Shown in pieces: positions 872-19,805 of a DNA stretch of 19,805 nt (the stretch's first letter is position 1; every line of letters starts with the position of its first letter). A model generated the notes under the pieces. That model did no database searches. It was not told the DNA's origin and saw only the letters and a list, made by a program, of their open reading frames with translations. This stretch comes from a virus (Duplodnaviria > Heunggongvirae > Uroviricota > Caudoviricetes): IMG/VR virus record IMGVR_UViG_2731957841_000001, positions 1 through 19,805 of that record; one strand, written 5' to 3'. Position numbers and translations under genes: made by a program.

Positions 872-876
872 GGCTA

Positions 877-3619: not shown

Positions 3620-3841
3620 ATGAGACCTAACATTTCAATCACTCTTACTACACCTCATGTGACTATTGAACGCTATAGCGAGCTGACAGGGCTATCCATC
3701 GATACCATCAATGACATGTTGGCTGATGGACGCCTTATCCGTCACCGTCTGCGCAAAGATAAAAAACGCGAAAAAGTGATGATCAACATAGCAGCAATGA
3801 CCGTTGATGCGCTTTCAGAATGCAATCTAAACCTTAATTAG
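3620..3841 (+). CDS. apl: Apl/Cox-like excisionase and transcriptional regulator
   Basis: 73-aa ORF, first gene of the rightward early operon facing cI, with an HTH-like segment ([24 protein letters not shown]). Assigned by position and size. Confidence 0.55.
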
Positions 3842-3873
3842 TTCGATTCTGAAATACATCAGAGGCATTGACC

Positions 3874-4383: not shown

Positions 4384-4390
4384 GGTGCTT

Positions 4391-4687
4391 ATGCTGACGA
4401 AAGAACCATCATTTGCATCGCTGCTGGTAAAACAAAGCCCGGCAATGCACTACGGTCACGGCTGGATCACGGGTGAGGATGGAAAACGCTGGCATCCATG
4501 TCATTCACAAGATGAATTGCTGTCTGAATTGACCACGAGGAAACGGAGAAAGTCCAAATGTATGCGGCAGAAAGTGAAGTGGTTTATCAGTTTCGTTACA
4601 GAGGGGAGAGTTATTCAGTACCTGAAGATGATTTGCTCTGTTGCTATCCGTCATTGTCGGGCGATGGCAGTTACTTTTTCACGTTAA
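4391..4687 (+). CDS. Hypothetical early protein; its 3' part overlaps the next ORF out of frame
   Basis: ATG 4391 with a GAGGTG RBS just after the cII stop; the distal part of the translation is Cys/Arg-rich and unconvincing. Confidence 0.3.
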   Translation: MLTKEPSFASLLVKQSPAMHYGHGWITGEDGKRWHPCHSQDELLSELTTRKRRKSKCMRQKVKWFISFVTEGRVIQYLKMICSVAIRHCRAMAVTFSR

Positions 4688-4782
4688 AGGATGGGACGTT
4701 TTTACGGGGAGAGCAGGTTAAAGAGACGATACGAAAAAATGTATCTCCTCTTGAGCGTTACCGTAAGAACAAAGAACGATAG
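4558..4782 (+). CDS. Hypothetical early protein (74 aa)
   Basis: Protein-like translation (MYAAESEVVYQFRYRGESYSVPEDD...), GGAG upstream; overlaps 4391..4687 in another frame. Confidence 0.45.
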   Translation: MYAAESEVVYQFRYRGESYSVPEDDLLCCYPSLSGDGSYFFTLKDGTFLRGEQVKETIRKNVSPLERYRKNKER

Positions 4783-4804
4783 CTGCGTTTGGGGGATATG
4801 AAGT

Positions 4805-5146
4805 ATGGCAATTAATGGCGCTGCAGCGACTGTTCCATTAAGCCCCGGTGAACGCCTGAATGGACTTAATCACATTGCGGAGTTAAGGGCGAAAGTGTTT
4901 GGCCTGAATATTGAGTCAGAGCTTGAGCGGTTTATTAAAGATATGCGTGATCCACGGGATATCAATAATGAACAAAATAAACGGGCACTGGCTGCCATAT
5001 TCTTTATGGCAAAAATTCCAGCTGAACGTCATAGCATCAGCATTAATGAGCTGACCACTGACGAAAAGCGGGAGTTGATTAAAGCAATGAATCATTTTCG
5101 TGCAGTGGTGAGCTTATTTCCCAGACGGCTAACCATGCCGAATTAA
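4805..5146 (+). CDS. Hypothetical early protein (113 aa)
   Basis: ORF with a GGGGGA RBS 8 nt upstream of the ATG; same strand and operon context as the other early genes. Confidence 0.5.
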   Translation: MAINGAAATVPLSPGERLNGLNHIAELRAKVFGLNIESELERFIKDMRDPRDINNEQNKRALAAIFFMAKIPAERHSISINELTTDEKRELIKAMNHFRAVVSLFPRRLTMPN

Positions 5147-5213
5147 CCAACTAATGAAATTAATGGCGTAAACCCGCCGGGCATCCCTTTATCTAAATTC
5201 AGGAGAATTGATT

Positions 5214-5447
5214 ATGCGTAATATTGAAACCCTCACGACTAAAACCGGACCGGATGACGCAGGGCTTAATATTTTACTGACAGAGGCTCGTCTGGAAGAA
5301 CGCCGGGCAAGGGCTGAAGCAATGGCTGCCCGCCTTGATAGTCTTGCGTGTCATATCACATCCCGCCAGCTAAACCACGTCGAAGCGGCAGAACTGCTGC
5401 GTGTGACCGCTGAAGCAATCCAGAACGAAGCGCAGGAGATCCACTAA
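5214..5447 (+). CDS. Hypothetical early protein (77 aa)
   Basis: Start taken at ATG 5214 with an AGGAG RBS at 5201..5205 (the ORF track begins at TTG 5208, too close to the RBS). Stop overlaps the next start (TAATG). Confidence 0.5.
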   Translation: MRNIETLTTKTGPDDAGLNILLTEARLEERRARAEAMAARLDSLACHITSRQLNHVEAAELLRVTAEAIQNEAQEIH

Positions 5448-5674
5448 TGGCTGATGCAATGGATCTCGTACAGCAGCGCGTTGAAGAAGAACGCCAGCGC
5501 CATATCCGTGCTGCCCGTGCCAAAACACCGGGCGTGTCTCGCGTGCTTTGTATTGAATGTGAAGCGCCAATTCCGCCAGCACGCCGCCGCGCCATTCCTG
5601 GAGTGCAGCTTTGCATTACCTGCCAGGAAATCGCAGAGCTGAAAGGCAAACATTACAACGGAGGTGCTGTATGA
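5447..5674 (+). CDS. TraR/DksA-family C4 zinc-finger protein
   Basis: 75 aa with CIECEAP...CITCQ (C-x2-C ... C-x2-C), typical of the small TraR-like proteins in P2-family early operons. Confidence 0.65.
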   Translation: MADAMDLVQQRVEEERQRHIRAARAKTPGVSRVLCIECEAPIPPARRRAIPGVQLCITCQEIAELKGKHYNGGAV

Positions 5675-6528
5675 GCACCATCCTGAAATGGGCGGGTAAT
5701 AAAACCGCCATTATGTCCGAACTGAAAAAATACCTTCCTGCTGGCCCGCGACTGGTTGAACCTTTCGCGGGTTCTTGTGCTGTGATGATGGCGACGGATT
5801 ACCCCAGCTATCTGGTTGCGGATATTAATCCTGATTTAATCAACCTCTATAAAAAGATTGCCGCTGATTGCGAAGCGTTTATATCTCGTGCCAGAGTTTT
5901 ATTTGAGGAAGCAAACAGTGAGCTGGCTTATTACAACATAAGACAGGAGTTTAATTACTCAACTGAAATTACTGATTTCATGAAGGCGATATATTTCCTG
6001 TATCTCAATCGTCACGGTTACCGTGGTTTATGTCGCTATAACAAGAGCGGGCATTTCAACATTCCCTACGGTAATTATAAAAATCCGTATTTCCCTGAAA
6101 AAGAAATTCGCGCATTTGCAGAGAAAGCCCCGCGGGCAACGTTTATCTGCGCCAGCTTTGATGAAACGCTGGCGATGTTGAAGGCGGGGGATGTGGTGTA
6201 TTGCGATCCGCCGTATGACGGTACGTTTTCCGGCTATCACACTGATGGTTTCACTGAAGATGACCAGTATCACCTGGCATCCGTTCTTGAACATCGGTCA
6301 TCAGAAGGTCATCCGGTCATTGTTTCTAACAGTGACACATCCCTGATTCGTTCGCTGTATCGCAATTTCACTCACCACTACATCAAGGCAAAACGCAGCA
6401 TCGGCGTGTCGGCTGGCGAGAGTAAATCTGCAACAGAAATCATTGCTGTTTCCGGGGCGCGCTGCTGGGTGGGATTTGATCCTTCGCGTGGCGTGGATAG
6501 TTCTGCTGTGTACGAGGTGCGTGTATGA
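5671..6528 (+). CDS. dam: DNA N6-adenine methyltransferase (Dam-like)
   Basis: Start at ATG 5671 (GGAGG RBS). N-terminal ILKWAGNK and PFAGSCAV (AdoMet-binding motif I) plus the catalytic DPPY motif ([10 protein letters not shown]). Stop overlaps the A start (ATGA). Confidence 0.8.
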
Positions 6529-8939
6529 GTCATGCCGATATGAGCGACTCTAGCGGCTTTAACGAGGCCGCTGCAGCATTTTCATGGAACGGCCCGAAAA
6601 AGGCCATAAACCCTTATCTGGACCCGGCGGAAGTTGCGCCGGTTTCTGCGCTTTCAAACCTGATCACTCTGTATGCTGCCGATAACGAGCAGGAACAGCT
6701 GCGCCGCGAGGAATTGAGTGAACAGGTCTGGGAGCGTTATTTCTTTAATGAATCCCGTGATCCTGTCCAGCGCGAAATGGAGCAGGATAAGCTCATTAGT
6801 CGGGCAAAGCTGGCGCATGAGCAGCAGCGTTTTAACCCGGACATGGTCATTCTGGCGGACGTCAGCGCCCAGCCCACCCACATCAGCAAGCCGCTGATGC
6901 AACGTATCGAATACTTCAGCAGCCTGGGCAGGCCAAAGGCTTATTCCCGCTATTTGCGTGAGACGATTAAGCCATGTCTGGAGCGACTGGATTGTGTACG
7001 CGACAGTCAGCTATCTACTTCTTTCCGTTTTATGGCAAGCCATCAAGGGCTGGAGGGCCTGCTGATCCTGCCTGAAATGAGTCAGGATCAGGTGAAACGC
7101 CTGTCCACCCTGGTAGCTGCGCATATGAGCATGTGTCTTGAGGCCGCTTGTGGTGATTTGTATACCAACGATGACGTAAAGCCAGAAGAAATCCGCAAGA
7201 CATGGGAAAAGGTGGCAGCGGAAACCCTGCGTCTGGATGTTATCCCGCCTGCGTTTGAGAAACTTCGTCGGAAAAGAAACCGCCGCAAACCTGTGCCCTA
7301 TGAACTCATACCGGGTTCGCTGGCACGTATGCTTTGCGCCGACTGGTGGTATCGAAAATTGTGGAAGATGCGTTGCGAATGGCGGGAAGAGCAGTTGCGT
7401 GCTGTCTGTCTGGTCAGCAAAAAAGCATCTCCCTATGTCAGCTATGAAGCCGTGATGCATAAACGTGAGCAGCGCCGCAAGTCGCTGGAGTTTTTCCGTT
7501 CTCATGAACTGGTGAACGAAGACGGAGACACGCTGGATATGGAAGATGTGGTAAACGCCAGCAGCAGCAACCCGGCACATCGCCGCAATGAGATGATGGC
7601 CTGCGTTAAAGGTCTGGAGCTTATCGCGGAAATGCGCGGTGACTGCGCCGTTTTCTACACCATCACATGTCCGTCACGTTTCCATTCCACGCTCAATAAC
7701 GGCAGGCCCAACCCGACCTGGACAAATGCGACGGTAAGACAAAGCAGCGATTATCTGGTCGGCATGTTTGCTGCATTTCGTAAGGCGATGCACAAAACCG
7801 GGTTGCGCTGGTATGGCGTACGGGTGGCTGAGCCGCACCATGACGGTACTGTGCACTGGCATCTCATGTGTTTCATGCGCAAAAAAGACCGCCGCGCCAT
7901 TACTGCATTGTTGCGTAAGTTTGCCATCCGTGAAGACCGCGAGGAGCTGGGCAATAACACGGGCCCACGCTTTAAGTCTGAGCTGATAAACCCACGCAAA
8001 GGAACGCCGACAAGCTACATCGCAAAATACATCAGTAAGAACATTGACGGGCGTGGTCTGGCTGGCGAGATCAGCAAGGAAACGGGTAAATCCCTGCGTG
8101 ATAACGCCGAATACGTTAATGCCTGGGCGTCTCTGCATCGTGTTCAGCAGTTCCGCTTCTTTGGTATTCCGGGGCGCCAGGCTTACCGTGAACTGCGATT
8201 GCTGGCTGGTCAGGCGGCAAGACAACAGGGTGACAAAAAAGCAGGTGCGCCGGTACTGGATGATCCGCGTCTTGATGCCATCCTGGCTGCTGCTGATGCT
8301 GGTTGTTTTGCCACCTACATCATGAAGCAGGGCGGCGTACTGGTTCCCCGCAAATATCACCTTATCAGAACAGCTTATGAAATTAACGAAGAGCCGACTG
8401 CCTATGGCGATCACGGTATTCGTATTTATGGCATCTGGTCACCCATTTCAGAGGGCAAGATCTGCACTCATGCAGTGAAGTGGAAAATGGTTCGTAAGGC
8501 CGTTGACGTTCAGGAGGCGGTAGCCGACCAGGGCGCTTGCGCCCCTTGGACTCGTGGCAATAACTGTCCCCTTGCTGAAAATTTGTACCAACAAGGGAAA
8601 GACAAATCAGCTGATGGGGGCTCCAGAACGGACATTACCCGCATGGATGACAAGGAATTGCACGATTACCTGCACAGTATGAGCAAAAAAGATCGCCGGG
8701 AGCTGGCAGCAAGGTTGCGCTTGGTGAAACCGAAACGGCGTAAAGACTACAAACAGCGAATTACAGATCATCAGCATCAGCAGCTCGTCTATGAACTGAA
8801 GTCCAGAGGATTTGATGGCAGCGAGAAAGAAGTCGATTTGCTCCTTCGCGGTGGCAGTATTCCGTCAGGAGCAGGCTTGCGTATCTTCTATCGGAACCAG
8901 CGTTTGCGGGAAGATGATAAGTGGCGGAACCTGTATTAA
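6525..8939 (+). CDS. A: Rolling-circle replication initiator (P2 gene A-like HUH endonuclease)
   Basis: 804 aa; HUH-type motif ([10 protein letters not shown]) and paired active-site tyrosines ([10 protein letters not shown]); size and position match P2/186 gene A. Confidence 0.85.
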
Positions 8940-9030
8940 TTACGCGGGTTAACAATTCGTGCTCTTAATAATACCAGGCATATCAGGCTGATGAACGTAA
9001 AAAAACGTTTTACATCAGTAAGATTATTAT

Positions 9031-9050
9031 ATACTGTAAATATAAACAGT
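9031..9050 (+). promoter_or_regulatory. LexA (SOS) box TACTGTAAATATAAACAGTG overlapping a promoter (-35 TTTACA 9008..9013, -10 TATACT 9029..9034)
   Basis: Perfect CTGT-N8-ACAG with an AT-rich centre, directly upstream of the small ORF and DinI-like operon. Confidence 0.6.
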
Positions 9051-9092
9051 GGTTATGTATACAGCATTTCTTGTGGTGTCATAGGAGGAAAG

Positions 9093-9281
9093 ATGCAGGA
9101 CTATTTTTTGGAGTCTTTGAAGCTCCAGCGCATTGATTTTTTTCTTAAGCTTGTAGCGGCTAGTGAGTGTAGTGATGAAGAGAAGGGGCTGGCTTTGCAG
9201 TGGGTTTCTGAACTAACAGATGAACTCATGGCAAAAATCAGAACCCACGAATACAACCGCTCAATGGATGTCATCAGTTGA
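9093..9281 (+). CDS. Small hypothetical protein (62 aa) in the position of a 186 Tum-type antirepressor
   Basis: AGGAGG RBS 4-5 nt upstream of ATG 9093. The longer track ORF starting at 8991 is rejected because the promoter and LexA box lie inside it. Confidence 0.45.
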   Translation: MQDYFLESLKLQRIDFFLKLVAASECSDEEKGLALQWVSELTDELMAKIRTHEYNRSMDVIS

Positions 9282-9291
9282 GGTGACTTTT

Positions 9292-9525
9292 ATGCGCATT
9301 GAAATAATGATCGATAAAGAGCAGAAGATTAGCCAGTCTATCCTGGACGCCCTTGAATCCGAGCTTTACCGCAATCTGCGCCCCCTGTATCCCAAAACGG
9401 TAATTCGTATCCGCAAAGGTAGCTCTAACGGTGTGGAACTGACCGGACTGCAACTGGACGAAGAAAGAAAACAAGTGATGAAAATTATGCAGAAGGTGTG
9501 GGAAGACGACAGCTGGCTGCATTAA
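9292..9525 (+). CDS. DinI-family protein
   Basis: MRIEIMIDKEQ...ILDALESELYRNL...VWEDDSWL aligns along its length with E. coli DinI as I recall it (MRIEVTIAK...IDALAGELSRRI...TWESADDWF). GAGGTGA RBS. Confidence 0.8.
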   Translation: MRIEIMIDKEQKISQSILDALESELYRNLRPLYPKTVIRIRKGSSNGVELTGLQLDEERKQVMKIMQKVWEDDSWLH

Positions 9526-9527
9526 GA

Positions 9528-9570
9528 AACGTTGCTGGCGTCTGAACTTGCTTCTGACGTCAGCAACGTT
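9528..9570. terminator. Long hairpin (15-bp stem AACGTTGCTGGCGTC / GACGTCAGCAACGTT, 13-nt loop) between convergent genes
   Basis: Inverted repeat read from the sequence, 2 nt after the DinI-like stop; a U-rich tract follows only on the minus-strand transcript. Confidence 0.45.
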
Positions 9571-9791
9571 GAACAACTAGTTTAGTGGGGCATTAGTCAT
9601 GGGGTAAAATACAGTAACCATTATTTTCACTTCCGCTCAGATTTAACCGAACGTTAGTTTTGCTACGTATGATGGGCTGCAAATTACCTTTTGGGATTTG
9701 TGATAGATACGAAAATCCTATTAGATGCTTGTTAGACCGGAAGCGCCACTTCGAACGAAAAGTAATGGCCACTTATGCCGGTTTAAAAGCC

Positions 9792-10322
9792 TTAACCTTG
9801 TATAGTTATTTGAATATTTTCTTCATTGACACCAAAGTATAGGGCTAGCCCTGCTTTTGCCTCCTGAAGTGTTAACGGCTTAACTACATTTTCTTCTTCT
9901 TCTTCGTACTCATCACCCGCTTGATCGACAATCGAATTAGTCGGGGTTAATTTTGGAAGAGCTTTAAATTCCAACTTGTCAGCCTCAATGCCAATGTCTT
10001 TGAGGTTGCGATAAGAAACGGGATTCCGATTGCCATCCCATTGTCCTGGGATGTCAATTTCAGCATAAGAATTGATGTTTATGATCCAGCGTTTAGGGTT
10101 TTCTGGAGCCCTGCTTACTCCCGAGATTCGACCGATCATAAAAGCATGATGATGTTTTGCTTCTTGTGATCCCCAGTCCTTTCTCGAATTTTGTACACAA
10201 ACTAAATATTCGTGCTTAGCTGCATGGCTGGCGTCAAGTCTCCATGCTTGGCTTCCCCCTGTGTTCAAAATCTCTGTTAAACCACGAGCAGTAAGTACAG
10301 TAATACAGTTGGTAGTAGCCAT
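9792..10322 (-). CDS. Hypothetical 176-aa protein, opposite-strand orphan in the cargo interval
   Basis: Long AT-rich ORF with a His-rich patch (KHHHAF), a WDGNRN motif and an acidic linker (DEYEEEEEN). No family recognised. Confidence 0.55.
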   Translation of the reverse strand: MATTNCITVLTARGLTEILNTGGSQAWRLDASHAAKHEYLVCVQNSRKDWGSQEAKHHHAFMIGRISGVSRAPENPKRWIININSYAEIDIPGQWDGNRNPVSYRNLKDIGIEADKLEFKALPKLTPTNSIVDQAGDEYEEEEENVVKPLTLQEAKAGLALYFGVNEENIQITIQG

Positions 10323-10637
10323 TGAATTGTGACCCCGTCTTTTTTAGAGAAATACTATTGATGAATGTAGTTTACGTATTTTTTTATTGAGTAGTCAAGT
10401 TAGTATTCTGCTCGTTATTGGCTGTTTTTTGAGTGTTGTGAGTTAGTACTTTGTGTAGTACCTCTTGGTTTATGAGGGTTAAATCTAAGTTATGACAAAG
10501 GGAGGCAGGGGGAACGCGCAGCGCAAGGTGTACAGGAGGCCATAAGGACTCACTTGAAGTAAGAAAAGATCGATAAAGCAACAATGCATGTCTATGCCGC
10601 ATGAATTCGCATGATCGTTTGAGGATCGTTTTAGCTG

Positions 10638-10667
10638 AGGCCCGCTAGGAATGGCGGGCTTTTGTTT
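10638..10667 (+). terminator. Rho-independent terminator-like hairpin (GCCCGC / GCGGGC stem, 8-nt loop) followed by TTTTGTTT
   Basis: Read from the sequence; no plus-strand gene lies upstream within about 1 kb. Confidence 0.45.
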
Positions 10668-10708
10668 ATGTCATGCAAGTGCATGAAAACCACTACATAA
10701 AGCGGGCA

Positions 10709-10727
10709 GGCGTGGCGGGGATACGAG
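10709..10727. other. cos-like motif GGCGTGGCGGGGATACGAG
   Basis: First 13 nt match the 186 cohesive end as I recall it (GGCGTGGCGGGGAAAGCAT; P2 is GGCGAGGCGGGGAAAGCAC). It is a GC-rich island in AT-rich spacer between the A-side cargo and Q. Confidence 0.35.
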
Positions 10728-10764
10728 CGCGCGCTGGGAGGTATAAGAATGAAGTACAATTAAC

Positions 10765-10792
10765 TTCACTTTGTTGAGTAAAATGCTATAAG
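10765..10792 (+). promoter_or_regulatory. Candidate sigma70 promoter for the OLD-like gene (-35 TTCACT, 16-bp spacer, -10 TATAAG)
   Basis: Hexamers read from the sequence about 70 bp upstream of ATG 10859; weak match, unverified. Confidence 0.25.
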
Positions 10793-10858
10793 AATAATGC
10801 AAATTATTGAGTCCCATTAGTTCAAAACTTAGGGATATCTTATGTGAAAGGAGGTTAT

Positions 10859-12544
10859 ATGTTAGATAAATTGATTTTTAATTCAGGAAGTAATCCAACA
10901 TCTAAATCTTCATTATCGGTTGACTTGACTCCATTGACAATTTTTGTGGGGCCGAATAATAGTGGTAAATCTAGAGCTTTAATCGATATAGAAAATCAAC
11001 TGACAACCCGAAATGCAGCGCAGGGAGAAGTAATAAAACAGATATTAATCAAACCACTTTCTGAGGATGAAGCAAAAAAGGAAATTGAATCTTTACAAGT
11101 TGAGCCAAACCAGGATGAAAAGCATGCGGGGCATGTTGTTTTATCTAGGCTAAACCTCCGTGGTGAAGGAATATCTAGGATTCTAGTGTATTTGGATGGA
11201 ATGTTAAGAGAATTCCAGCAACCCAATGAATTCAATCGGGAGCATCTATATCAATATTACTCGTTGCTGACTCTAAGGTTGGATGGTAGAAGTCGACTTT
11301 CCTTAACTTCAAGTCAAGGTTCATCCGATTTACAAGGAGAACCTACGAATAACCTTTCATTTCTTTTTAAAAATAATAAAGCAAGGATGGAGCTAAGAGA
11401 TATCGTTTTTGATGCTTTCGGGAAGTATCTTGTTATTGATCCAACAAATATAGGTTATCTTAGAATTCGTCTTTCTGAGCGCGCTCCTGAGACTGAACAA
11501 GAAGAAAGAGGTTGGGATGAAAAGTCAGTGCTTTTTCATTCAAAAGCGTCATTGATTACAGAGGCTAGCGATGGTGTTAATGCTTTTGTTGGGATGATGA
11601 TTTCGCTGATAGTTGGCTCACCAAAGGTGACTCTAATTGATGAGCCGGAAGCTTTTTTACATCCATCCTTATGCTCAAAGTTAGGAAAGGAAATATCTAG
11701 GATTAGTGCTCATAGTAATAAAAATGTGTTTATTTCAACGCATAGCGCTAATTTTTTAATGGGTTGTGTTCAAGGTAAAGTGCCATTGAATATAGTTAGG
11801 CTTACTTTTGATGGTAAATCTGGTACGTCTAGATTACTAACAAAGGAACAATTGACGCCGCTCATGAGAAATCCGTTATTAAGATCTATTGGTGTGCTAA
11901 ACGCATTGTTTTATAATTACGTTGTCGTTACTGAAGCGGATGCAGATAGGGCATTTTATCAAGAGATTAATGAGCGCTTATTGGCTGCTGGAGATCCTCG
12001 GGGTATTGAGGGATGCCTGTTTTTGAATGCTCAAAACAAACAAACTGTTTGGGATATAGTAAAACCCCTTCGTGAGCTAGGTATTCCCTGCGTTGGAGTG
12101 GTAGATATCGATATATTGAAGGAGGGAGGAGTTGTATGGAAAAAACCAATGCTTGGAGCTTTTTTTCCAGAAATGAAGCATGAAACTTTAGGTTTGGAAA
12201 GACAAAAGCTTTTTCAAGCCTTCAAAAATACGAATAAAAATATGAAGACAGATGGGGGCCTCTCCTTGTTATCGGGTTCAGATAAAACCGCCTGCTCTGA
12301 GTTTTTTAAATCCCTTTCAGATTATGGGGTTTTTGTCGTTCCAACGGGCGAGATCGAGTCTTGGTTGCAAAATCTTGAAATAGGTCGAGGAAAGAATACT
12401 TGGTTAACAAGTATTTTCGAGAAGATGGGGGATGATCCTAATGATGAATCATATGTGAAGCCATCTGAAGGTGATGTTTGGGATTTTATTGGGAATATAA
12501 AGCACTGGTTGGTTAACCCTGAAAGGAAGGGTATTCCCGAGTGA
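10859..12544 (+). CDS. OLD-family nuclease: N-terminal ABC-type ATPase plus C-terminal Toprim domain (P2 Old-like, class 1 arrangement)
   Basis: Start at ATG 10859 (AGGAGG RBS). Walker A (FVGPNNSGKS), signature-like EASDGVNAF, Walker B (VTLIDEPEAFLHP), H-loop (ISTHSA); C-terminal Toprim-like acidic motifs (VVVTEADADRAF, VGVVDIDIL). No adjacent helicase gene. Confidence 0.7.
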   Translation: MLDKLIFNSGSNPTSKSSLSVDLTPLTIFVGPNNSGKSRALIDIENQLTTRNAAQGEVIKQILIKPLSEDEAKKEIESLQVEPNQDEKHAGHVVLSRLNLRGEGISRILVYLDGMLREFQQPNEFNREHLYQYYSLLTLRLDGRSRLSLTSSQGSSDLQGEPTNNLSFLFKNNKARMELRDIVFDAFGKYLVIDPTNIGYLRIRLSERAPETEQEERGWDEKSVLFHSKASLITEASDGVNAFVGMMISLIVGSPKVTLIDEPEAFLHPSLCSKLGKEISRISAHSNKNVFISTHSANFLMGCVQGKVPLNIVRLTFDGKSGTSRLLTKEQLTPLMRNPLLRSIGVLNALFYNYVVVTEADADRAFYQEINERLLAAGDPRGIEGCLFLNAQNKQTVWDIVKPLRELGIPCVGVVDIDILKEGGVVWKKPMLGAFFPEMKHETLGLERQKLFQAFKNTNKNMKTDGGLSLLSGSDKTACSEFFKSLSDYGVFVVPTGEIESWLQNLEIGRGKNTWLTSIFEKMGDDPNDESYVKPSEGDVWDFIGNIKHWLVNPERKGIPE

Positions 12545-12551
12545 GTTTATT

Positions 12552-12573
12552 GAGCCGCTTTAGCGGCTCTTTT
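12552..12573 (+). terminator. Rho-independent terminator (GAGCCGC-TTTA-GCGGCTC followed by TTTT) after the OLD-like gene
   Basis: Hairpin plus T-run 8 nt after the stop codon, in the 36-bp gap before the convergent Q stop. Confidence 0.55.
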
Positions 12574-12580
12574 CATATTC

Positions 12581-13609
12581 CTATGCAAGGTTATATTCAT
12601 TAAATTGCATTATTGGCTCCTTTATCCATTCATTTACTTCTTGAAGCCTTTTTTGCAATGGAATTAGCTCATTACGGACAAAGACCCTGCTGGCTTTCTC
12701 CACATCCCCAAATCCCCCGACATTATTTGGCATTATCCCCATCATTTGTGGCGGCACACGATGCGCAGCCATCATGTCATCCCGGCTCACGTTCTTGATA
12801 TTCAGAAACTCATCCTTCGCCGCGACTTCTGACAACGGGATGATCTGAAGCCCGTCCTTTTTGCCGTTAGGCGAGTACATAAACAGGTTGCGGAAGTTGC
12901 CAGGGCCTTTGGCGCTTTTCATCGCATTGCGGAGGTTGTTCACATCCTCCTGGTTCTGCGCGGCATCGGTCATGTACATGATGAAGCCTGCATGACTGCC
13001 GTTAATGTAATACTTCCGGCGGAACAGCGTGGCGGACTCGTTGAGCAGGGCTGACGGAATGGCAGAAAGATAACCTGGCAGGCCGTAGATCTCCTGGTTG
13101 ATGTCAGGTTCCATCAGATGAAAAATGCTGCCTTTCGTGAACTGATACGGCTGGGTTGTCATACCGTATTGCACAAACCAGTAGGTATCCAGGTCTAACC
13201 CGCGTCGGGTGTATTTTGCCAGCGCAGGCTCAAGGGCTATAACTTCACCGAATCGGTTCGTGCGTTTCTCCAGGTAGGCGTTACCAAATACCAGATAGTC
13301 CTGCACAAAACGCGAAAAAGCCTGTTGGCTGAGCAGCGGATGAGGGATATAGGTACTGGTCAGAATGTTGCACTTTACTGCAATCGGGGAACTGTGATGC
13401 ACGGCAGCCCGGAAGGTGCGCGCCAGTCCGTCAAAACTTACGGGTGGCTCATACCAGCGATCCGTCTGTACGCATTCCACATAGTCCAGCAGTTCGCGGC
13501 GGTCCAGTACAGGAATGGGATCACCAAAGCTGAAAGCTTCGGCTGAAGTTTGATTTTTATGCTGGCTCCGTTTCGTCGCAGCAGCGCGGTTTTTCTTACT
13601 CTTTCCCAT
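12581..13609 (-). CDS. Q: Portal protein (P2 gpQ-like)
   Basis: 342 aa from ATG 13609 (the track starts one codon earlier at TTG); directly downstream of the terminase gene with a TGATG stop/start overlap, as in the P2 PQ operon. Confidence 0.85.
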   Translation of the reverse strand: MGKSKKNRAAATKRSQHKNQTSAEAFSFGDPIPVLDRRELLDYVECVQTDRWYEPPVSFDGLARTFRAAVHHSSPIAVKCNILTSTYIPHPLLSQQAFSRFVQDYLVFGNAYLEKRTNRFGEVIALEPALAKYTRRGLDLDTYWFVQYGMTTQPYQFTKGSIFHLMEPDINQEIYGLPGYLSAIPSALLNESATLFRRKYYINGSHAGFIMYMTDAAQNQEDVNNLRNAMKSAKGPGNFRNLFMYSPNGKKDGLQIIPLSEVAAKDEFLNIKNVSRDDMMAAHRVPPQMMGIMPNNVGGFGDVEKASRVFVRNELIPLQKRLQEVNEWIKEPIMQFNEYNLA

Positions 13610-15375
13610 CAAAAAATCTCCACAATATTGCTGGTATTGGCGGACTCGCCCTGCAGCGGTTCGTTAAACAGTGCGTGCATTGTTGCCCAGGCCAGATCGG
13701 CGTGGCTGGCTTCTTCGCTGCGGCTAGCTTCATAGGTCGGGCGGTTGCCGCTGGCGGTGGTGGCGCGACGGATTGCCATGAATGACTGCGCAATGTCGGT
13801 GTGCCCGGCGTCAAACTCCAGACGGCGGTGGCTGATAATGTCGTAGGCCTTGAGTACCAGGGCGTTTTTAACGTTGGGGTTGTAGACAAACTCCCGGACG
13901 GCAGGAAAGAACGCTTTCACGTTCTCATAAACCCCGTGACCGACGCCTGTCGAGTCGATGCCGATATAGGTCACGTTGTACTGCTCGGTCAGTTTTTTGA
14001 TTGCATCAGCCTGGGCGCGGAAGTCCATCCCGCGCCACTGGTGACGCTCAAGAATGCGAAACTTACCGCCTGGCACGGCTGGCGGTGCCACCACCACGCA
14101 TCCGGCGCTGTCGCCATTCTGCGTACCTTTTGCCGGGTCATAACCGATCCACACCTCGCGCCAGCCAAACGGGCGCAGGGCCAGTGCATGAAAGTCGGTC
14201 CAGACTTCCCAACTGTCCACCATGCACGCCTGCAGCTCGCTGAGCGGAAACACGGATGCGAGATCGTCCACAAACTCGCACATCAGCAGGTTCTGGTATT
14301 CGTCCGGGCTGTACTCCATGCGTAGCTGGTCGAGGTCGAACAGGTTACAGCCGCCGCGCACCGCATCTTCCACGGTGACTATCTGGCGGTATTGCCCGTC
14401 TGCGCACAGCAGGCCGGGGGCCAGATTGCTGTGGGACAGGTCGATGTCCACCTTATCGGCTTTGTTGCGCCCACGGTTGAACAGCGCACCGGACCAGAAC
14501 GGATAAGCACTGTGTGTCAGACTGGATGGCGTGGAAAAATAGGTTTGTCGCCATTTTTTGTGAATAGCCATACCGGAAGCCACTTTGCGCAGCTCCTGGA
14601 ATTTCGGTATCCAGAAATATTCATCCAGATACAGGTTGCCGTGGTAACTCTGGGCCGTGCGGGCATTGGTGCCGAGGAAGTAAAGCGTGGCCCCGTTAGG
14701 AAGCACCATCGGATCGCCTTTCAGCTCCACCTCCACTTCTTTGGCAAAGTCGATGATGTACTGTTTAAAGACGTGGGCCTGAGCCTTGCTGGCAGAAAGG
14801 AAAATCTGGTTACGCCCGGTCAGCAGGGCGTCAATCAGGGCTTCACGGGCAAAGTAAAAGGTCGCGCCGATCTGGCGTGACTTCAGCAGGTTGCGGATGC
14901 GGTTGGTTTTTCCGGCTTCCCACCAGTGGCGCTGGTAGTTGAACATAGAGGAATGGAAGATTTCTTCCAGTTTCTCAATCTGTTCATCGGTGAAAACATT
15001 CTTTTCCGGCTGACGACGTGGGCCTTTGTTGCGGTTGGCAACGTTAGGGTTTAAGTCGGCTTCGTTGCCGCCATTGTTAAACTTGCCGATCCGCGCGTGG
15101 CGCTCAGACTGGCGTGCCAGCAGGTCAATTTCTTTGAAATCTTTCCCTTCTTTGTGCTCCTTCATAATGAGCTGGCAGTAGCGTGCGGCGGTGGTGAGCT
15201 GCATCTGATCCAGCGGCCCATAGTCACCCCACTTGTCGCGTTTTTTCCAGCTGTGAACGGTTGCAACTTTCTCGCCCAGCATTTCAGCAATGCGGGCGAC
15301 GCGGTATCCCTGAAAGTACAGCAGCATGGCCTGCCGACGGGGATCGAGATCTGCGGGTGTCAGTGTGGTGTTCAT
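13609..15375 (-). CDS. P: Terminase large (ATPase) subunit (P2 gpP-like)
   Basis: 588 aa; N-terminus (LDPRRQAMLLYFQGYRVARIAEMLG...HSWKKRDKW) and size match P2 gpP; followed by Q on the same strand. Confidence 0.85.
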   Translation of the reverse strand: MNTTLTPADLDPRRQAMLLYFQGYRVARIAEMLGEKVATVHSWKKRDKWGDYGPLDQMQLTTAARYCQLIMKEHKEGKDFKEIDLLARQSERHARIGKFNNGGNEADLNPNVANRNKGPRRQPEKNVFTDEQIEKLEEIFHSSMFNYQRHWWEAGKTNRIRNLLKSRQIGATFYFAREALIDALLTGRNQIFLSASKAQAHVFKQYIIDFAKEVEVELKGDPMVLPNGATLYFLGTNARTAQSYHGNLYLDEYFWIPKFQELRKVASGMAIHKKWRQTYFSTPSSLTHSAYPFWSGALFNRGRNKADKVDIDLSHSNLAPGLLCADGQYRQIVTVEDAVRGGCNLFDLDQLRMEYSPDEYQNLLMCEFVDDLASVFPLSELQACMVDSWEVWTDFHALALRPFGWREVWIGYDPAKGTQNGDSAGCVVVAPPAVPGGKFRILERHQWRGMDFRAQADAIKKLTEQYNVTYIGIDSTGVGHGVYENVKAFFPAVREFVYNPNVKNALVLKAYDIISHRRLEFDAGHTDIAQSFMAIRRATTASGNRPTYEASRSEEASHADLAWATMHALFNEPLQGESANTSNIVEIF

Positions 15376-15424
15376 GGCACAAACCTACAGCCTTGAATGA
15401 AGGCTTTCCCCGCCTGCGGTTTGT

Positions 15425-15943
15425 GTGGTTGAAGGACTTTCAGTTGCGGGGCCAACTGCAGCTTATGAATTTCATGCCCGAAGCGCCGACGGTCGGGTGG
15501 CGGATGCCAGTGCAACCAGCCCGGCACCTGCAGAGGTGGTGCTGACTGTCCTTAGCCGCGAAGGCGATGGAACTGCAGAAAAAGACCTGCTGGACGTGGT
15601 GGAAAAAGCTCTGAACAGTGAGAACGTCCGCCCGGTGGCTGACCGTCTTACGGTTCGCAGCGCAGAAATCATCCCGTATCGCGTGGAAGCCACCATTTTT
15701 CTCTATCCGGGACCGGAAGCAGAGCCGGTAATGGCAGCGGCAAAAGCCAGTCTGCAGAAGTACATTGCCAGCCAGACGAGGCTTGGTCGGGATATTCGCC
15801 GTAGCGCCATCTTTGCTGCTCTGCATGTTGAGGGTGTTCAACGTGTGGAACTGGCTTCTCCGCTGGCGGATGTGGTCCTGAACAAAACACAGGCGGCATC
15901 ATGTACGCAGTGGAGCGTAACCAACGGAGGAACGGATGAATAG
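15425..15943 (+). pseudogene. J: Baseplate protein J, C-terminal fragment only
   Basis: Translation resembles the C-terminal part of P2-type gpJ (RPVADRLTVRSAEIIPYRVEATIFLYPG...IFAALHVEGVQRVEL), and its stop overlaps the next start as at the P2 J/I junction. It begins about 50 bp after the P start codon, so O-N-M-L-lysis-R-S-V-W and the J N-terminus are absent. Confidence 0.6.
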
Positions 15944-17828
15944 TCTGCTGCCACCGGGTTCAACTTCACTGGAGCGCCGACTGGCGCAAACCTGTAGCGG
16001 GATTTCTGATTTGCAGGTGCCGCTGCGTGACTTGTGGAATCCGGCTATCCAGCGTGTGCTGGAGAAGGTGAACGCACTGCCGCAGGACAAGCGTCTGTCT
16101 GCCATGACCATGTTGTTTGGTAAAGAGTTTGGCGATGACGCGGCGAAACTGGCAAACAACCTGCCGGAACTACAGCGCCAGCTAAAACTGACAGCGGGCA
16201 ATGATGCGCTCGGTTCCATGCAGAAAGAATCCGACATCAACAAGGACTCACTTTCTGCTCAGTGGTTGCTGGTTAAAACCGGAGCGCAGAATACCTTCAG
16301 CAGCCTGGGCGAAACGCTGCGCCAGCCGCTGATGGATATTCTGTACACGGTGAAAAGCGTTACGGGAGCGTTGCGTCGCTGGGTGGAAGCTAACCCGGAA
16401 CTGACGGGCACACTGATGAAAGTAGCCGCTATTGTGGCTGCGGTTACCGTCGGCCTCGGCACCTTGGCTGTGGCGCTGGCTGCAGTGCTGGGGCCGCTGG
16501 CAGTCATCCGTCTGGGATTCTCTGTGCTGGGCATCAAAACGTTACCTTCCGTTACGGCAGCAGTAACACGAACCAGCAGCGCGTTGTCCTGGCTGGCTGG
16601 CGCACCACTGGCACTGCTGCGACACGGGCTTGCTTTATCGGGTAACGCAGCGGGTTTACTTACTGCGCCGTTGTCGTCTTTGCGCCGTACGGCATCACTG
16701 ACGGGAAATGTCCTGAAAACTGTTGCAGGTGCGCCGGTTGCACTTTTGCGGTCTGGATTATCCGGTTTACGTGCGGTTGCTGTGATGTTTATGAATCCTC
16801 TGGCGGTACTGCGCGGTGGACTGACCGCCGCAGGTACGGTGCAGCGAGTACTGGCATCTGGTCCACTGGCGATGCTGCGCGTTGCCCTGTATGCCATATC
16901 TGGTCTGTTAGGTGCTCTGCTCAGTCCGATAGGTCTAGTGGTTACTGCACTGGCAGGCGTGGCGCTGGTTGTCTGGAAATACTGGCAACCCATCACCGCA
17001 TTTCTCGGTGGCGTGGTGGAGGGATTCAAAGCGGCGGCAGGTCCCGTCAGTGCCGCATTCGAACCACTTAAGCCTGTGTTCCAGTGGATTGGCGACAAAG
17101 TGCAGGCGCTGTGGGGCTGGTTTACTGACCTGCTGACGCCCGTTAAGTCGACCTCTGCCGAACTGCAGAGTGCAGCGGCAATGGGGCGACGATTCGGGGA
17201 GGCTCTGGCGGAAGGGCTGAATATGGTCATGCATCCGCTGGACTCCCTGAAATCCGGCGTTTCCTGGTTGCTGGAGAAACTCGGCATTGTCAGTAAAGAG
17301 GCCGCAAAGGCAAAACTACCGGAAAGCGTGACGCGTCAGCAACCTGCGACGGTGAATGCAGACGGCAAAGTGATGATGCCATCGGGTGGTTTTCCATCAT
17401 GGGGATATGGCTTTGCGGGGATGTATGACAGCGGCGGGTATATCCCGCGCGGGCAGTTTGGCATCGTCGGTGAAAACGGGCCGGAAATTGTTAACGGCCC
17501 GGCAAATGTGACCAGCCGGAGAAATACAGCTGCACTGGCTGCCGTTGTTGCCGGAATGATGGGCGTTGCTGCCGCGCCAGCAGAGCTTCCACCGTTGCAC
17601 CCTTTGGCACTTCCCGCGAAAGGTGGAGAAGCAATTGTGAGTCGCGCAGCCACTGTGCCGCTCGTTCAACGGATTGAGGCACCGACGCAGATCATCATTC
17701 AGACGCAGCCAGGACAAAGTGCGCAGGATATTGCGCGGGAGGTGGCACGCCAGCTTGATGAACGTGAACGCAGGCTGAAGGCAAAAGCCAGGAGTAACTA
17801 CAGCGATCAGGGGGGATACGACGCATGA
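15936..17828 (+). CDS. T: Tail tape measure protein, truncated; the first ~37 codons look like the N-terminus of tail protein I (in-frame deletion fusion)
   Basis: N-terminus LLPPGSTSLERRLA...VPLRDLWNP resembles the gpI start, then switches to tape-measure-like sequence with degenerate PLAxLRxGL repeats and the C-terminal MYDSGGYIPRGQFGIVGENGPEIV motif. Stop overlaps the U start (ATGA). Confidence 0.65.
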   Translation: MNSLLPPGSTSLERRLAQTCSGISDLQVPLRDLWNPAIQRVLEKVNALPQDKRLSAMTMLFGKEFGDDAAKLANNLPELQRQLKLTAGNDALGSMQKESDINKDSLSAQWLLVKTGAQNTFSSLGETLRQPLMDILYTVKSVTGALRRWVEANPELTGTLMKVAAIVAAVTVGLGTLAVALAAVLGPLAVIRLGFSVLGIKTLPSVTAAVTRTSSALSWLAGAPLALLRHGLALSGNAAGLLTAPLSSLRRTASLTGNVLKTVAGAPVALLRSGLSGLRAVAVMFMNPLAVLRGGLTAAGTVQRVLASGPLAMLRVALYAISGLLGALLSPIGLVVTALAGVALVVWKYWQPITAFLGGVVEGFKAAAGPVSAAFEPLKPVFQWIGDKVQALWGWFTDLLTPVKSTSAELQSAAAMGRRFGEALAEGLNMVMHPLDSLKSGVSWLLEKLGIVSKEAAKAKLPESVTRQQPATVNADGKVMMPSGGFPSWGYGFAGMYDSGGYIPRGQFGIVGENGPEIVNGPANVTSRRNTAALAAVVAGMMGVAAAPAELPPLHPLALPAKGGEAIVSRAATVPLVQRIEAPTQIIIQTQPGQSAQDIAREVARQLDERERRLKAKARSNYSDQGGYDA

Positions 17829-18310
17829 TGATGGTGCTGGGATTGTACGTGTTTATGCTGCGCACCGTTCCGTATCAGGAACTGCAGTATCAACGCAGCT
17901 GGCGACATGCGGCAAACAGTCGGGTAAACCGACGTCCGTCCACGCAGTTTCTGGGACCGGAAAACGACATGCTGACGCTTTCCGGTGTTCTTATGCCGGA
18001 GATAACAGGCGGCAGGCTGTCGTTGCTGGCACTGGAGCAGATGGCAGAACAGGGGAAAGCATGGCCCCTGATTGAAGGCAGCGGCATGATTTACGGCATG
18101 TATGTGATTGAGGGACTGAATCAGACTAAAACGGAGTTTTTCCGCGACGGTATGCCGCGCCGGATTGAGTTCACCCTGTCGCTCAAACGAGTGGATGAAT
18201 CCCTGTCCGATATGTTCGGTGATCTCAGTGCGCAACTGAATAATCTGCAGGACACGGCAACGTCTGCCTTAAGCGATATCAGTAAAACGGTGGGAGGGCT
18301 GCTGTCGTGA
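17825..18310 (+). CDS. U: Tail protein U (P2 gpU-like)
   Basis: 161 aa; N-terminus MMMVLGLYVFMLRTVPYQELQYQRSW matches my recollection of P2 gpU; position between T and D. Confidence 0.8.
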   Translation: MMMVLGLYVFMLRTVPYQELQYQRSWRHAANSRVNRRPSTQFLGPENDMLTLSGVLMPEITGGRLSLLALEQMAEQGKAWPLIEGSGMIYGMYVIEGLNQTKTEFFRDGMPRRIEFTLSLKRVDESLSDMFGDLSAQLNNLQDTATSALSDISKTVGGLLS

Positions 18311-19407
18311 ATTTCAGCTCAGAACTGCTTAACAAAGGCAACAAAACTCCCGCATTCAGCATCAGTATTGAGGGCAGGGATATCACCACAGTGCTGGATA
18401 ACCGCCTGATGAGTTTGACGCTGACGGATAACCGGGGCTTTGAAGCGGACCAGCTTGATCTGGAGTTGGATGACGCTGACGGAAAAATCGTGCTGCCGCG
18501 CCGTGGTGCGGTCATTACGCTGGCGCTGGGCTGGAAGGGGCAGCTGCTTTTCCCGAAAGGGGCATTCACAGTGGACGAGATTGAACACACTGGCGCACCG
18601 GACCGCCTGACTATCCGGGCGCGAAGTGCTGATTTTCGGGAAACGCTGAATACCCGCCGTGAAAAATCGTGGCATAAGACCACCGTCGGGGAAGTGGTGA
18701 AGGAAATAGCCGCGCGGCACAAGCTGAAGATGGCACTGGGTAAAGACCTGTCGGATAAGCCCGTGGAGCATATAGACCAGACTAATGAGAGTGACGGCAG
18801 TTTTCTGATGCGGCTGGCGCGACAATACGGTGCCATCGCGTCGGTGAAAAATGGCAATCTGTTATTCATCCGGCAGGGGCAGGGCAAAAGCGTCACTGGT
18901 AAACCTCTGCCAGTGATCACTATCACACGCAAGGACGGCGACAGTCACCGATTTACCCTGGCAGATCGCGGAGCCTACACGGGCGTAATTGCCAGCTGGT
19001 TGCATACCCGCGAACCTGCGAAGAAAGAAAGCACCACGGTGAAGCGTAAGCGCAGAACTAAGAAGCAGAAGAAAGAGCCAGAAGCGAAGCAGGGCGATTA
19101 CCTGGTGGGTACGGATGAAAACGTGCTGGTACTTAATCGCACTTATGCCAACCGGAGCAACGCCGAACGAGCGGCGAAAATGCAGTGGGAACGCCTGCAA
19201 CGCGGCGTTGCGTCATTTTCGCTACAACTGGCAGAAGGGCGGGCAGATCTCTACACGGAAATGCCTGTGAAGGTCAGTGGTTTTAAACAGCCGATAGATG
19301 ATGCGGAATGGACCATTACGACTCTGACACATACCGTCAGCCCGGATAACGGTTTTACAACCAGTATTGAACTCGAAGTGAAGATTGATGATTTCGAAAT
19401 GGAATGA
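18307..19407 (+). CDS. D: Tail/late gene D protein (P2 gpD-like)
   Basis: 366 aa; MNFSSELLNKGNKTPAFSISIEGRDIT... matches P2 gpD as I recall it; apparent GTG start overlapping the U stop (GTGA). Confidence 0.8.
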   Translation: MNFSSELLNKGNKTPAFSISIEGRDITTVLDNRLMSLTLTDNRGFEADQLDLELDDADGKIVLPRRGAVITLALGWKGQLLFPKGAFTVDEIEHTGAPDRLTIRARSADFRETLNTRREKSWHKTTVGEVVKEIAARHKLKMALGKDLSDKPVEHIDQTNESDGSFLMRLARQYGAIASVKNGNLLFIRQGQGKSVTGKPLPVITITRKDGDSHRFTLADRGAYTGVIASWLHTREPAKKESTTVKRKRRTKKQKKEPEAKQGDYLVGTDENVLVLNRTYANRSNAERAAKMQWERLQRGVASFSLQLAEGRADLYTEMPVKVSGFKQPIDDAEWTITTLTHTVSPDNGFTTSIELEVKIDDFEME

Positions 19408-19496
19408 TTCTTCGCAATGGAGAACTTTTAAGTTTGCAAAATGGAATAATGCGGTATCATTATTGTGAATTTAGCAAAAATGGGAGAACTCGAAAA

Positions 19497-19715
19497 ATGA
19501 TGATTTGCCCACTGTGTGGAAGTGCCGCCCATACTCGCAGCAGTTTTCAGGTATCTTCATTGACCAAAGAGCGTTACAACCAGTGCCAGAATATTAACTG
19601 CAGCCATACTTTTGTAACCCATGAAACTTTTGTTCGTTCGATTGCAACGCCAAAAGAGTCAAATCCGGTTCAGCCGCATCCAATGAAATCAGGACAGGTG
19701 GCGCTCTCTCTTTGA
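19497..19715 (+). CDS. ogr: Ogr-type zinc-finger late transcription activator
   Basis: 72 aa from ATG 19497; CPLCGSAAHTRSS...ERYNQCQNINCSHTF matches the P2 Ogr zinc-finger pattern; last gene before the right-hand repeat. Confidence 0.85.
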   Translation: MMICPLCGSAAHTRSSFQVSSLTKERYNQCQNINCSHTFVTHETFVRSIATPKESNPVQPHPMKSGQVALSL

Positions 19716-19716
19716 C

Positions 19717-19739
19717 GCTGCCGCCATTTTGTCGCCATC
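19717..19739. repeat. Putative attR core: CGCTGCCGCCATTTTGTCGCCAT, direct repeat of 94..116
   Basis: 22/23 identity with the left copy; starts 2 nt after the ogr stop codon. Confidence 0.55.
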
Positions 19740-19805
19740 GTTAAAAAACAGTGCTTCTAACGTCATGATTTTAAACGACATAAATTTCAGGCAACAAAAA
19801 ACCCA

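Follow-up and report, generated by a model that had tools for sequence, protein, structure and literature searches.

The 19,805 bp stretch of DNA analysed here in full (the window) is an Escherichia coli prophage of P2/186 type, now defective (cryptic) after two internal deletions, in a case of ordinary prophage erosion. It very probably originated, and very recently, from a full-length 34.5-kb prophage that lost two internal blocks by illegitimate, microhomology-mediated recombination. The prophage is undescribed in the literature searched, and the paper on the E. coli VL2732 genome is silent on it.

An intact copy at the same chromosomal site

A full-length copy of 34,525 bp resides at the identical rcdA-ybjL site of E. 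coli 1297KP (NZ_CM173856.1; L010 10502-45026) and is referred to below as the parent; these two genes flank the prophage in every locus examined. Over the 19,805 bp that they have in common, parent and window differ by three SNPs (99.98% identity), and they are collinear save for two gaps. One SNP falls in the tail gene U (position 18087), while the remaining two are intergenic, within the lysogeny, replication and cargo modules. The two prophages share the att core, the integration site and the cargo (a Panacea pair and an Old-like nuclease), whereas the parent retains blocks of 7,280 bp and 7,440 bp, the full head, lysis and tail gene set, and all three late-promoter dyads. Since a near-identical intact copy is known in another strain, the decay event is unusually easy to date.

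The order of the genes (int, repressor/switch, replication gene A, cos, Q and P leftward with the late operons rightward, ogr, att) is that of P2-like phages (Peduoviridae), and the prophage is collinear with Klebsiella phage 4LV2017, P2 and the parent except at the two gaps. The complete head, lysis and tail set of such phages is lacking: O to W, most of J and I, H, G, FI, FII, E/E' and codons 1-432 of T are gone. The element is a derivative of a P2-like phage and no functional member of that group. As is typical of a cryptic prophage, it consists of three blocks with 99.97-100% identity to the parent, with internal blocks missing and att sites intact (comparison with 1297KP shows both the attL and attR cores to be present). 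Furthermore, the two deletions span the genes for the particle and for lysis (capsid, scaffold, small terminase, holin, lysozyme, spanins, sheath, tube and baseplate). Tailocins keep tail and lysis genes and lose the head, whereas here the deletions took the sheath, tube and baseplate genes together with those for lysis.

Breakpoints and truncated genes

Breakpoints were mapped by BLASTN against phage 4LV2017 and against the intact 1297KP prophage. The window resolves into three collinear blocks (1-15431, 15429-16047 and 16045-19805), each neighbouring pair overlapping by 3 bp. The resulting features are compiled in Table 1.

Table 1. Features of the defective prophage, in window coordinates.
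Feature	Position	Strand	Description
Whole defective prophage	1..19805	+	Begins just past the attL core and closes with the attR core
Probable cos site	10709..10727	+	GGCGTGGCGGGGATACGAG; in conserved island 10586-10736; proposed from homology only
Portal gene Q, intact	12581..13609	-	342 aa; PF04860 Phage_portal; same as parent
Large terminase gene P, intact	13609..15375	-	588 aa; Pfam Terminase_5/6N/6C; same as parent
P-O intergenic stump	15376..15431	.	56 bp; keeps the P-proximal half of the activator dyad (TGTGTGGTTG, 15422-15431)
Junction 1	15429..15431	.	TTG microhomology; three-way alignments with both parental flanks; 7,280 bp of parent lost
J' fragment	15432..15943	+	C-terminal 170 codons of baseplate gene J (parent residues 133-302), identical
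I' fragment	15936..16047	+	Codons 1-37 of tail gene I; start codon and ribosome-binding site (GGAGG) are its own; identical to parent
Junction 2	16045..16047	.	CTA microhomology, in frame; 7,440 bp of parent lost
T' fragment	16048..17828	+	Tape measure residues 433-1025, without difference from T of the parent (1,025 aa)
Tail gene U, full length	17825..18310	+	PF06995 Phage_P2_GpU; one SNP relative to parent, 18087
Tail gene D, intact	18307..19407	+	PF05954 Phage_GPD; same as parent
ogr late-gene activator, intact	19497..19715	+	72 aa; PF04606 Ogr_Delta; same as parent
attR core copy	19792..19805	.	AACAAAAAACCCA(T); identical 13-14 bp on the bacterial side of attL in 1297KP

Deletion 1 runs from a point between P and O, 56 bp upstream of where P starts (15375), to codon 132/133 of J. 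It removed the half of the pP/pO activator site that is distal to P, the pO promoter, the genes O, N, M, L, X, holin, lysozyme, lysA-like, lysB/C, R, S, V and W, and J codons 1-132. The original prediction had coding sequence resuming inside J about 50 bp past the terminase start, with the O-through-W block and the J N-terminus missing; comparison with intact relatives agrees on both counts and sets the distance at 56 bp and the point of re-entry at parent J residue 133. The mechanically assigned GTG start of the 172-aa open reading frame (15425) falls in the intergenic stump, and no Shine-Dalgarno sequence was seen by eye upstream of it. Likewise, a search of 15150-16150 for a sigma-70-like promoter, including one created at junction 1 that would drive J' to D, found none.

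At deletion 2, codon 37/38 of I is followed, with the frame kept, by residue 433 of a tape measure protein that is 1,025 aa long when complete; I codons 38-201, H, the region of tail-fibre assembly and the invertase, sheath, tube, E/E' and T codons 1-432 are lost. The product is a 630-aa open reading frame (15936-17828) without a single mismatch to the parent proteins. The first 37 or so codons of I had been proposed to run in frame into the tape measure gene, and the number is exactly 37, followed by residues 433-1025; the 3' part of I, H, G, the sheath and tube genes and the T N-terminus are missing as foreseen, and E/E' has gone with them.

Origin of the deletions

The original prediction had called for alignment to an intact genome and a search for microhomology at the junctions, and this alignment placed the breakpoints to the base, at TTG and CTA. 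Overlaps of at least 3 bp would arise by chance in ~5% of random joins, and at both junctions in ~0.3% (by our own formula). The joins carry no long repeat and no IS or foreign DNA, as expected of microhomology-mediated deletion; IS sequence is absent between the collinear blocks. Local alignment revealed no longer imperfect repeats at the breakpoints above the random level, with 10% (junction 1) and 83% (junction 2) of random pairs scoring at least as high. Two other possibilities were considered. Deletion 2 was not attributed to the phage invertase, as its end points lie in I and T, outside the invertible region. The in-frame nature of the joins (junction 2 and a third deletion described below) allows no conclusion on selection, since two in-frame joins are expected about once in nine by chance.

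In the proposed course of events, a full-length 34.5-kb prophage would have lost its O-J and I-T blocks at 3-bp microhomologies, yielding a deleted prophage that would retain immunity and cargo and be devoid of morphogenesis and lysis functions. The disarmed prophage would therefore leave its host with the possible benefits and without the risk of lysis. Drift in one clone, rather than selection for the deleted form, would give an identical picture. No observation contradicts the two-deletion structure as such.

Whether both blocks were lost together is a separate matter. A single complex replication event with serial template switching (of the MMBIR/FoSTeS type), passing from the P-O region to J, copying 616 bp and then moving on to T, is a possibility that we entertain tentatively. 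The equal 3-bp microhomology at both junctions and the short retained segment between them are consistent with it, as is the failure to see a single-deletion intermediate among the 5,426 complete E. coli genomes and the contigs read; moreover, the independent derivative CP032986.1 carries a 374-bp inverted P-O fragment between two large gaps, an arrangement that likewise resembles the outcome of template switching. On the other hand, intermediates may simply be unsampled, and simple single deletions do occur in this prophage family (LP50-1, and the third deletion in ERR15664131). Two sequential events and one complex event are equally plausible.

Retained functions and loss of late control

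Portal, terminase, U, D and ogr had been expected to survive, and all match the parent apart from the SNP in U; the lysogeny, replication and cargo modules are also kept, with just the two intergenic SNPs. The large terminase is 64% identical to P2 gpP in an alignment that begins at the first Met. In alignment, the cos candidate corresponds to the cohesive end of P2, GGCGAGGCGGGGAAAGCAC, together with the conserved flank on its left, and the surrounding island is kept in 4LV2017 and LP50-1 despite the different cargo around it. An Old-like ATPase-TOPRIM nuclease makes up the cargo together with a Panacea-domain pair. PADLOC had no match for the two cargo genes at the left end, and Pfam recognised only the Panacea domain in them.

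Judging from this gene content and from what is known of P2 and 186, the element would still provide CI immunity, and its Int, Apl and replication functions probably still work. Assembly of heads or tails, lysis of the cell and production of virions, in contrast, would be beyond it.

The late genes of P2 require Ogr and TGT-N12-ACA sites in their operons (PMC3931495). Both the parent and 4LV2017 carry TGTGTGGTTGTCGGTACA at the place where P2 has an annotated 'activator binding site; pO, pP promoters'. Three such dyads are found in the parent (L010 25923-25940, 31831-31848 and 37697-37714), upstream of O, V and FI, with a spacing like that of the annotated P2 activator sites. Deletion 1 severs TGTGTGGTTGTCGGTACA after its tenth base, and the other two dyads (pV and pF) are deleted; hence, all three positioned Ogr-type dyads are affected. 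With the pP/pO site cut and pV and pF inside the deletions, ogr is left without a target in the element. The suspicion that the late promoter might be damaged is thereby borne out. The accompanying statement that no TGT-N12-ACA site is visible upstream of P holds for the activator position but not to the letter, as a literal match is present at 15364-15381. We do not regard this match as an Ogr site, given its overlap with the start codon of P, its unchanged presence in the intact phages, and a frequency of the pattern across the window no higher than chance. By analogy with P2 and 186, the surviving late genes (Q, P, J', the I'::T' fusion, U and D) are probably silent passengers that Ogr cannot switch on. 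Read-through into J' to D, or basal Ogr-independent transcription of P and Q, may occur.

Mobility

The set of genes that escaped deletion raises the question as to whether the element is a mini-prophage that still excises, replicates and re-integrates, and that a related P2-like helper might package as an incipient satellite. If true, this would be a satellite-like parasite caught being born from an ordinary prophage. Indeed, int, apl, the A replication gene, the cos-like site, Q, P and ogr are all kept, and packaging by a co-resident or superinfecting P2-like phage is conceivable because the cos-like site, ogr, portal and large terminase are present. A head-to-tail pair of copies in NNXA01000006.1 also points to Int-mediated recombination after the deletions, but this tandem arrangement occurs in a single assembly only. 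With 99.98% identity to an ordinary prophage, the element is too young for satellite adaptations to have arisen; no block falls below 99.97% identity to that prophage, and no P4-type Pfam match (sid, psu, primase) exists among the genes called in the loci, unlike what a P4-like satellite would present. At 19.8 kb the element amounts to ~57% of the parent genome and its dimer to ~115%, which may not suit the tolerance of a P2-type head. Finally, all carriers seen have the element at one chromosomal site, and the equally long carrying contigs from two runs fit vertical inheritance. We consider a mobile element of this kind improbable, and retain the reading of a cryptic prophage disarmed by deletion.

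Carriers and public annotation

Both junctions, with sequence identical to the window, were recovered from two Logan assemblies (L003 and L004) of separate sequencing runs, and the NCBI assembly GCA_002486185.1 shows the matching gene order. The exact fusion protein is present on 65 contigs and J' on 76, and the fusion has been deposited as KRR49998.1 from E. coli VL2732. Neither junction occurs among the 5,426 complete E. coli genomes. An exact scan for junction 2 in one-genome-per-species contigs and viral contigs gave no match, which is no evidence against the element. The carriers look like one clone with vertical inheritance.

In public records the two truncated products are named 'Baseplate assembly protein GpJ' and 'phage tail tape measure protein', without a mark of partiality, as though the 172-aa and 630-aa frames were natural full-length variants of J and the tape measure protein with nothing missing. 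That they are so is scarcely credible. The product of 15425..15943 is no protein other than J, corresponding to parent J residues 133-302, and the 630-aa protein is not a complete tape measure protein but I residues 1-37 plus T residues 433-1025. Intact relatives have a J of 302 aa and a T of 1,025 aa, and the 1,025-aa members of the protein cluster carry the name tape measure protein. Pfam coverage agrees, as the 172-aa frame spans just the C-terminal half of Baseplate_J (profile positions 130-254 of 255) and the fusion the first 33 positions (1-33 of 139) of Tail_P2_I. These names therefore warrant a warning, since a J fragment and an I::T fusion pass for normal baseplate and tape measure proteins.

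Collapsed or chimeric contigs can in principle mimic deletions, but no observation supports such an artefact, for which we see next to no chance: the junctions are identical in independent assemblies of different sequencing runs, the gene order recurs in the NCBI assembly, and the fusion protein was deposited from VL2732.

Other decay products at the locus

Further derivatives accompany the window. ERR15664131 belongs to the window's own lineage and has undergone a third in-frame deletion, which fuses I'::T' to D. LP50-1 has lost the region from O' to 'J, nearly the same block as deletion 1, while in CP032986.1 the replication module is gone as well and an inverted fragment is present. The breakpoints of LP50-1 and CP032986.1 differ, so these are independent events. 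All three resemble the window in having internal deletions at 2-3 bp microhomology, with loss of morphogenesis genes and preservation of the ends. In NNXA01000006.1, from the single assembly GCA_002486185.1, the two deleted copies enclose a reconstituted attP.

Alone, the find carries little weight: prophages with deleted morphogenesis and lysis genes are common, and illegitimate recombination at short microhomologies is the mechanism one would expect. Its value lies in the natural series at one chromosomal site, formed by an intact parent three SNPs away, a double deletion, a third deletion, independent deletions and a tandem duplication. This series could be used to measure the speed and order in which P2-like prophages are disarmed, and to test the immunity and defence functions (Old-like nuclease, Panacea pair) and the mobilisability of a disarmed copy.

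Comparison with known systems

Klebsiella phage 4LV2017 (Elveevirus, Peduoviridae) has the same gene order as the window, and the shared modules are 94-98% identical at the DNA level. The reference gene maps of P2 and 186 also agree in gene order; the pO/pP activator site and cos have their homologues in P2, while the switch region (CI, CII, Fil) follows the 186 type. In contrast to the window, these are complete, plaque-forming phages, and their cargo differs (a retron in 4LV2017, old/tin in P2). Loss of lysis and morphogenesis genes with retention of immunity and cargo is a feature of grounded or defective prophages (PMC6379469; PMC2669165).

The window resembles the satellite phage P4, a P2-dependent element, in its cos, integrase and Ogr-family activator. 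P4 has evolved independently, as a replicon of 11.6 kb that brings its own primase and genes for capsid size, whereas the window is a P2-like phage with holes, in which no such Pfam match was obtained among the called genes. A parallel in mode of decay may be the cryptic P2 remnant of E. coli K-12, which Slettan et al. reportedly described in 1992 and which is said to carry ogrK and a D fragment. There too, internal erosion spared the right end (D, ogr, attR). The K-12 remnant, however, is an old stump of less than 1 kb, whereas the window is a very young prophage of 19.8 kb that still holds its lysogeny, replication and packaging genes.

Identity of the prophage and its intact parent

The window is a complete integrated prophage of the P2/186 type, and its gene map is listed in the table below. 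The closest match in the phage database is Klebsiella phage 4LV2017 (94-98% identity). Despite this, the host is E. coli, since the exact 630-aa and 172-aa products were deposited from E. coli VL2732, an isolate from bovine mastitis described as phylogroup A, ST10 (PMC4556653), and since E. coli genes flank the element in all recovered loci (rcdA on the left; ybjL, ybjM, grxA, nfsA, rimK and potF on the right).

BLASTN comparison with 4LV2017 divides the window into three collinear blocks, which meet at 15429-15431 and 16045-16047. The same prophage, with the same site and cargo, is present at its full length of 34,525 bp in E. coli 1297KP (NZ_CM173856.1; locus L010), from which the window differs by three substitutions across 19,805 bp. 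Deletion 1 removed 7,280 bp (L010 25933-33212); it begins in the intergenic space between P and O (56 bp upstream of the P ATG) and ends within J, of which parental residues 133-302 are kept. Deletion 2 removed 7,440 bp (L010 33829-41268) and fuses I (codon 37/38) to T (codon 432/433) with the reading frame kept; the resulting 630-aa ORF, made up of residues 1-37 of I and residues 433-1025 of T, shows zero mismatches to the parent. Furthermore, the Pfam match of the 172-aa ORF is limited to the C-terminal half of Baseplate_J, and that of the fusion to positions 1-33 of the Tail_P2_I profile.

The original prediction, made from the sequence alone, had proposed two such junctions, one resuming inside J and one carrying some 37 codons of I in frame into the tape measure gene. 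Since the parent comparison and the partial Pfam matches agree, its coordinates, gene assignments and codon count are correct. The product of 15425-15943 is indeed the C-terminal part of J rather than another full-length protein, and the 630-aa protein is not a complete tape measure protein; the observation is confirmed and its interpretation supported.

Features of the prophage, its parent and its tandem copy (window coordinates unless stated)
Feature	Position	Strand	Remark
attL core, AACAAAAAACCCA[T]	directly left of window start		13-14 bp
251-aa protein and 155-aa SocA/Panacea-domain protein	116-1344	minus	left end, between attL core and int
Integrase, CI-type repressor, apl/cII/fil-type early region, DNA methylase, replication gene A	right of left-end cargo
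DinI-like gene	after replication gene A
Cos-like site	about 10709-10727		homology to P2 cos
Old-like ATPase-TOPRIM nuclease	10844-12544	plus	PADLOC Old; Pfam AAA_15, AAA_21, OLD-like_TOPRIM; between cos-like site and Q
Portal Q, large terminase P		minus
J fragment, I::T fusion, U, D, ogr		plus
attR core, copy of AACAAAAAACCCA[T]	window right end
Parent dyad TGTGTGGTTGTCGGTACA	between P and O
Parent dyad TGTATCAGCACTGATACA	upstream of V
Parent dyad TGTATGAATAACGGTACA	upstream of FI
Tandem joint	L007 10381/10382; L022 14381/14382		window 19805 joined to window 1

Spread and annotation

An assembly artefact is excluded: two Logan assemblies built from separate sequencing runs (L003 and L004) contain both junctions in a stretch that matches the window without a difference, the NCBI assembly GCA_002486185.1 has the same gene order, and the fusion protein and the J fragment are recorded on 65 and 76 contigs, respectively. 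As carrying contigs from two different runs are identical in length and gene content, and the insertion site is constant in all carriers, vertical inheritance within one clone is the simplest reading. In public records, the two products (KRR49997.1 and KRR49998.1; window 15425-17828) are named "Baseplate assembly protein GpJ" and "phage tail tape measure protein", their partial or chimeric state unmarked, which serves as a warning about annotation.

Origin of the junctions

The two parental sequences overlap by TTG at junction 1 and by CTA at junction 2, three bases in each case; by our own formula, random joining would produce an overlap of at least 3 bp at about 5% per junction. No longer repeat was found close to either breakpoint, and no IS or other foreign DNA lies between the collinear blocks. 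To judge by their sequence, the junctions bear the signature of RecA-independent illegitimate recombination, via slippage or template switching. They may reflect two successive deletion events, or a single complex event in which the 616-bp J-I piece was copied between two template jumps; neither the contigs read nor a set of 5,426 complete E. coli genomes showed an intermediate with only one deletion. The phage invertase is rejected as the cause of deletion 2, whose ends lie outside the invertible tail-fibre segment.

Late promoters and expression of the surviving late genes

In P2, four late promoters depend on Ogr and contain a TGT-N12-ACA element (PMC3931495); in the annotation of the P2 record, one activator site is common to the divergent pP and pO, while pV and pF have one site each. 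The parent carries perfect dyads at equivalent positions, that between P and O being alignable with the P2 site. Deletion 1 severs this dyad after its tenth base, leaving the remnant TGTGTGGTTG followed by J sequence, and the dyads upstream of V and FI fall within deletions 1 and 2. The late-promoter damage suspected originally is therefore borne out. The accompanying claim that no TGT-N12-ACA site lies upstream of P holds in part: the true dyad is cut in half, but a literal match exists at 15364-15381, which overlaps the P start codon, is found in intact phages too, and is best read as chance. No new sigma-70-like promoter was found around the junctions. Activator-dependent transcription would be lost for Q, P, the J fragment, the I::T fusion, U and D, and the intact ogr would have no target inside its own element.

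The reading frame of the J fragment takes its GTG start from the intergenic stump; as no Shine-Dalgarno sequence was seen before this GTG, the fragment is probably not translated. The I::T fusion retains the native ribosome-binding site of I. The distance from the activator dyad centre to the P start codon (window 15375-15431) is 55.5 bp, as against 79 bp in P2, and a -10-like TAGGTT on the minus strand (15387-15382) stops 7 bp short of the P ATG. Given this closeness of both elements to the ATG, the P mRNA of this phage group may, speculatively, start at or beside the start codon, and hence be leaderless.

Cargo and possible residual mobility

From its gene content, the element would be unable to make capsids or tails, or to lyse the cell. 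The repressor gene, integrase, replication gene and cargo are unchanged, the lysogeny, replication and cargo modules differing from the parent by two intergenic SNPs only, at 3551 and 2578. The former lies in the cI-apl switch region, just downstream of a promoter-like TTGACG-N17-TATGTT (read by eye), and the latter upstream of int. Most likely the element does its host no harm while carrying CI immunity and candidate defence genes, the standard picture of a "grounded" or domesticated prophage (PMC6379469).

The left-end cargo pair, absent from 4LV2017, may represent a Panacea antitoxin and its toxin; the 251-aa protein has no Pfam or PADLOC match, and is widespread (2,108 blocks of the collection). 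Where the window has its Old-like nuclease, 4LV2017 has a retron and the related prophage of LP50-1 a DprA-like gene, and this difference in content marks the cos-Q interval as a variable cargo hotspot.

In NNXA01000006.1 (GCA_002486185.1; L007/L022), two deleted copies follow each other head to tail at a spacing of exactly 19,805 bp, and a reconstituted attP separates them. The duplication is later than the deletions, which suggests that the defective element underwent Int-mediated recombination. Together with the retained cos-like site, this leaves a low probability that the element can still move, or that another phage can help it.

Comparison with other decayed prophages

The feature is ordinary, very recent prophage decay, not novel in kind; no description of this prophage was found in the literature searched, and its value, besides the annotation warning, lies in a well-resolved decay series. 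Within the same lineage, ERR15664131 (L006/L021) carries a third deletion of ~2.36 kb (~window 16645-19004; 2-bp microhomology TA), which joins the I::T fusion, with the reading frame kept, to the final third of D as a 369-aa ORF, U being gone. At the same rcdA-ybjL site, an independent deletion in the LP50-1 prophage (NZ_CP101858.1; L005 18435-18563) extends from about codon 58 of O to about codon 107 of J, with a 3-bp overlap; nearly the same block as in deletion 1 is lost, but the other tail genes are kept. CP032986.1 (L017 1-1700) holds an independent and more drastic derivative, again at this site, in which an inverted 374-bp P-O piece connects cII with the 3' end of T, fil through most of T being gone. 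With decay products in all three, erosion is recurrent within this prophage family. E. coli K-12 carries an ogr-D remnant, and the window is a point on a continuum of decay that ends in stumps of this kind.
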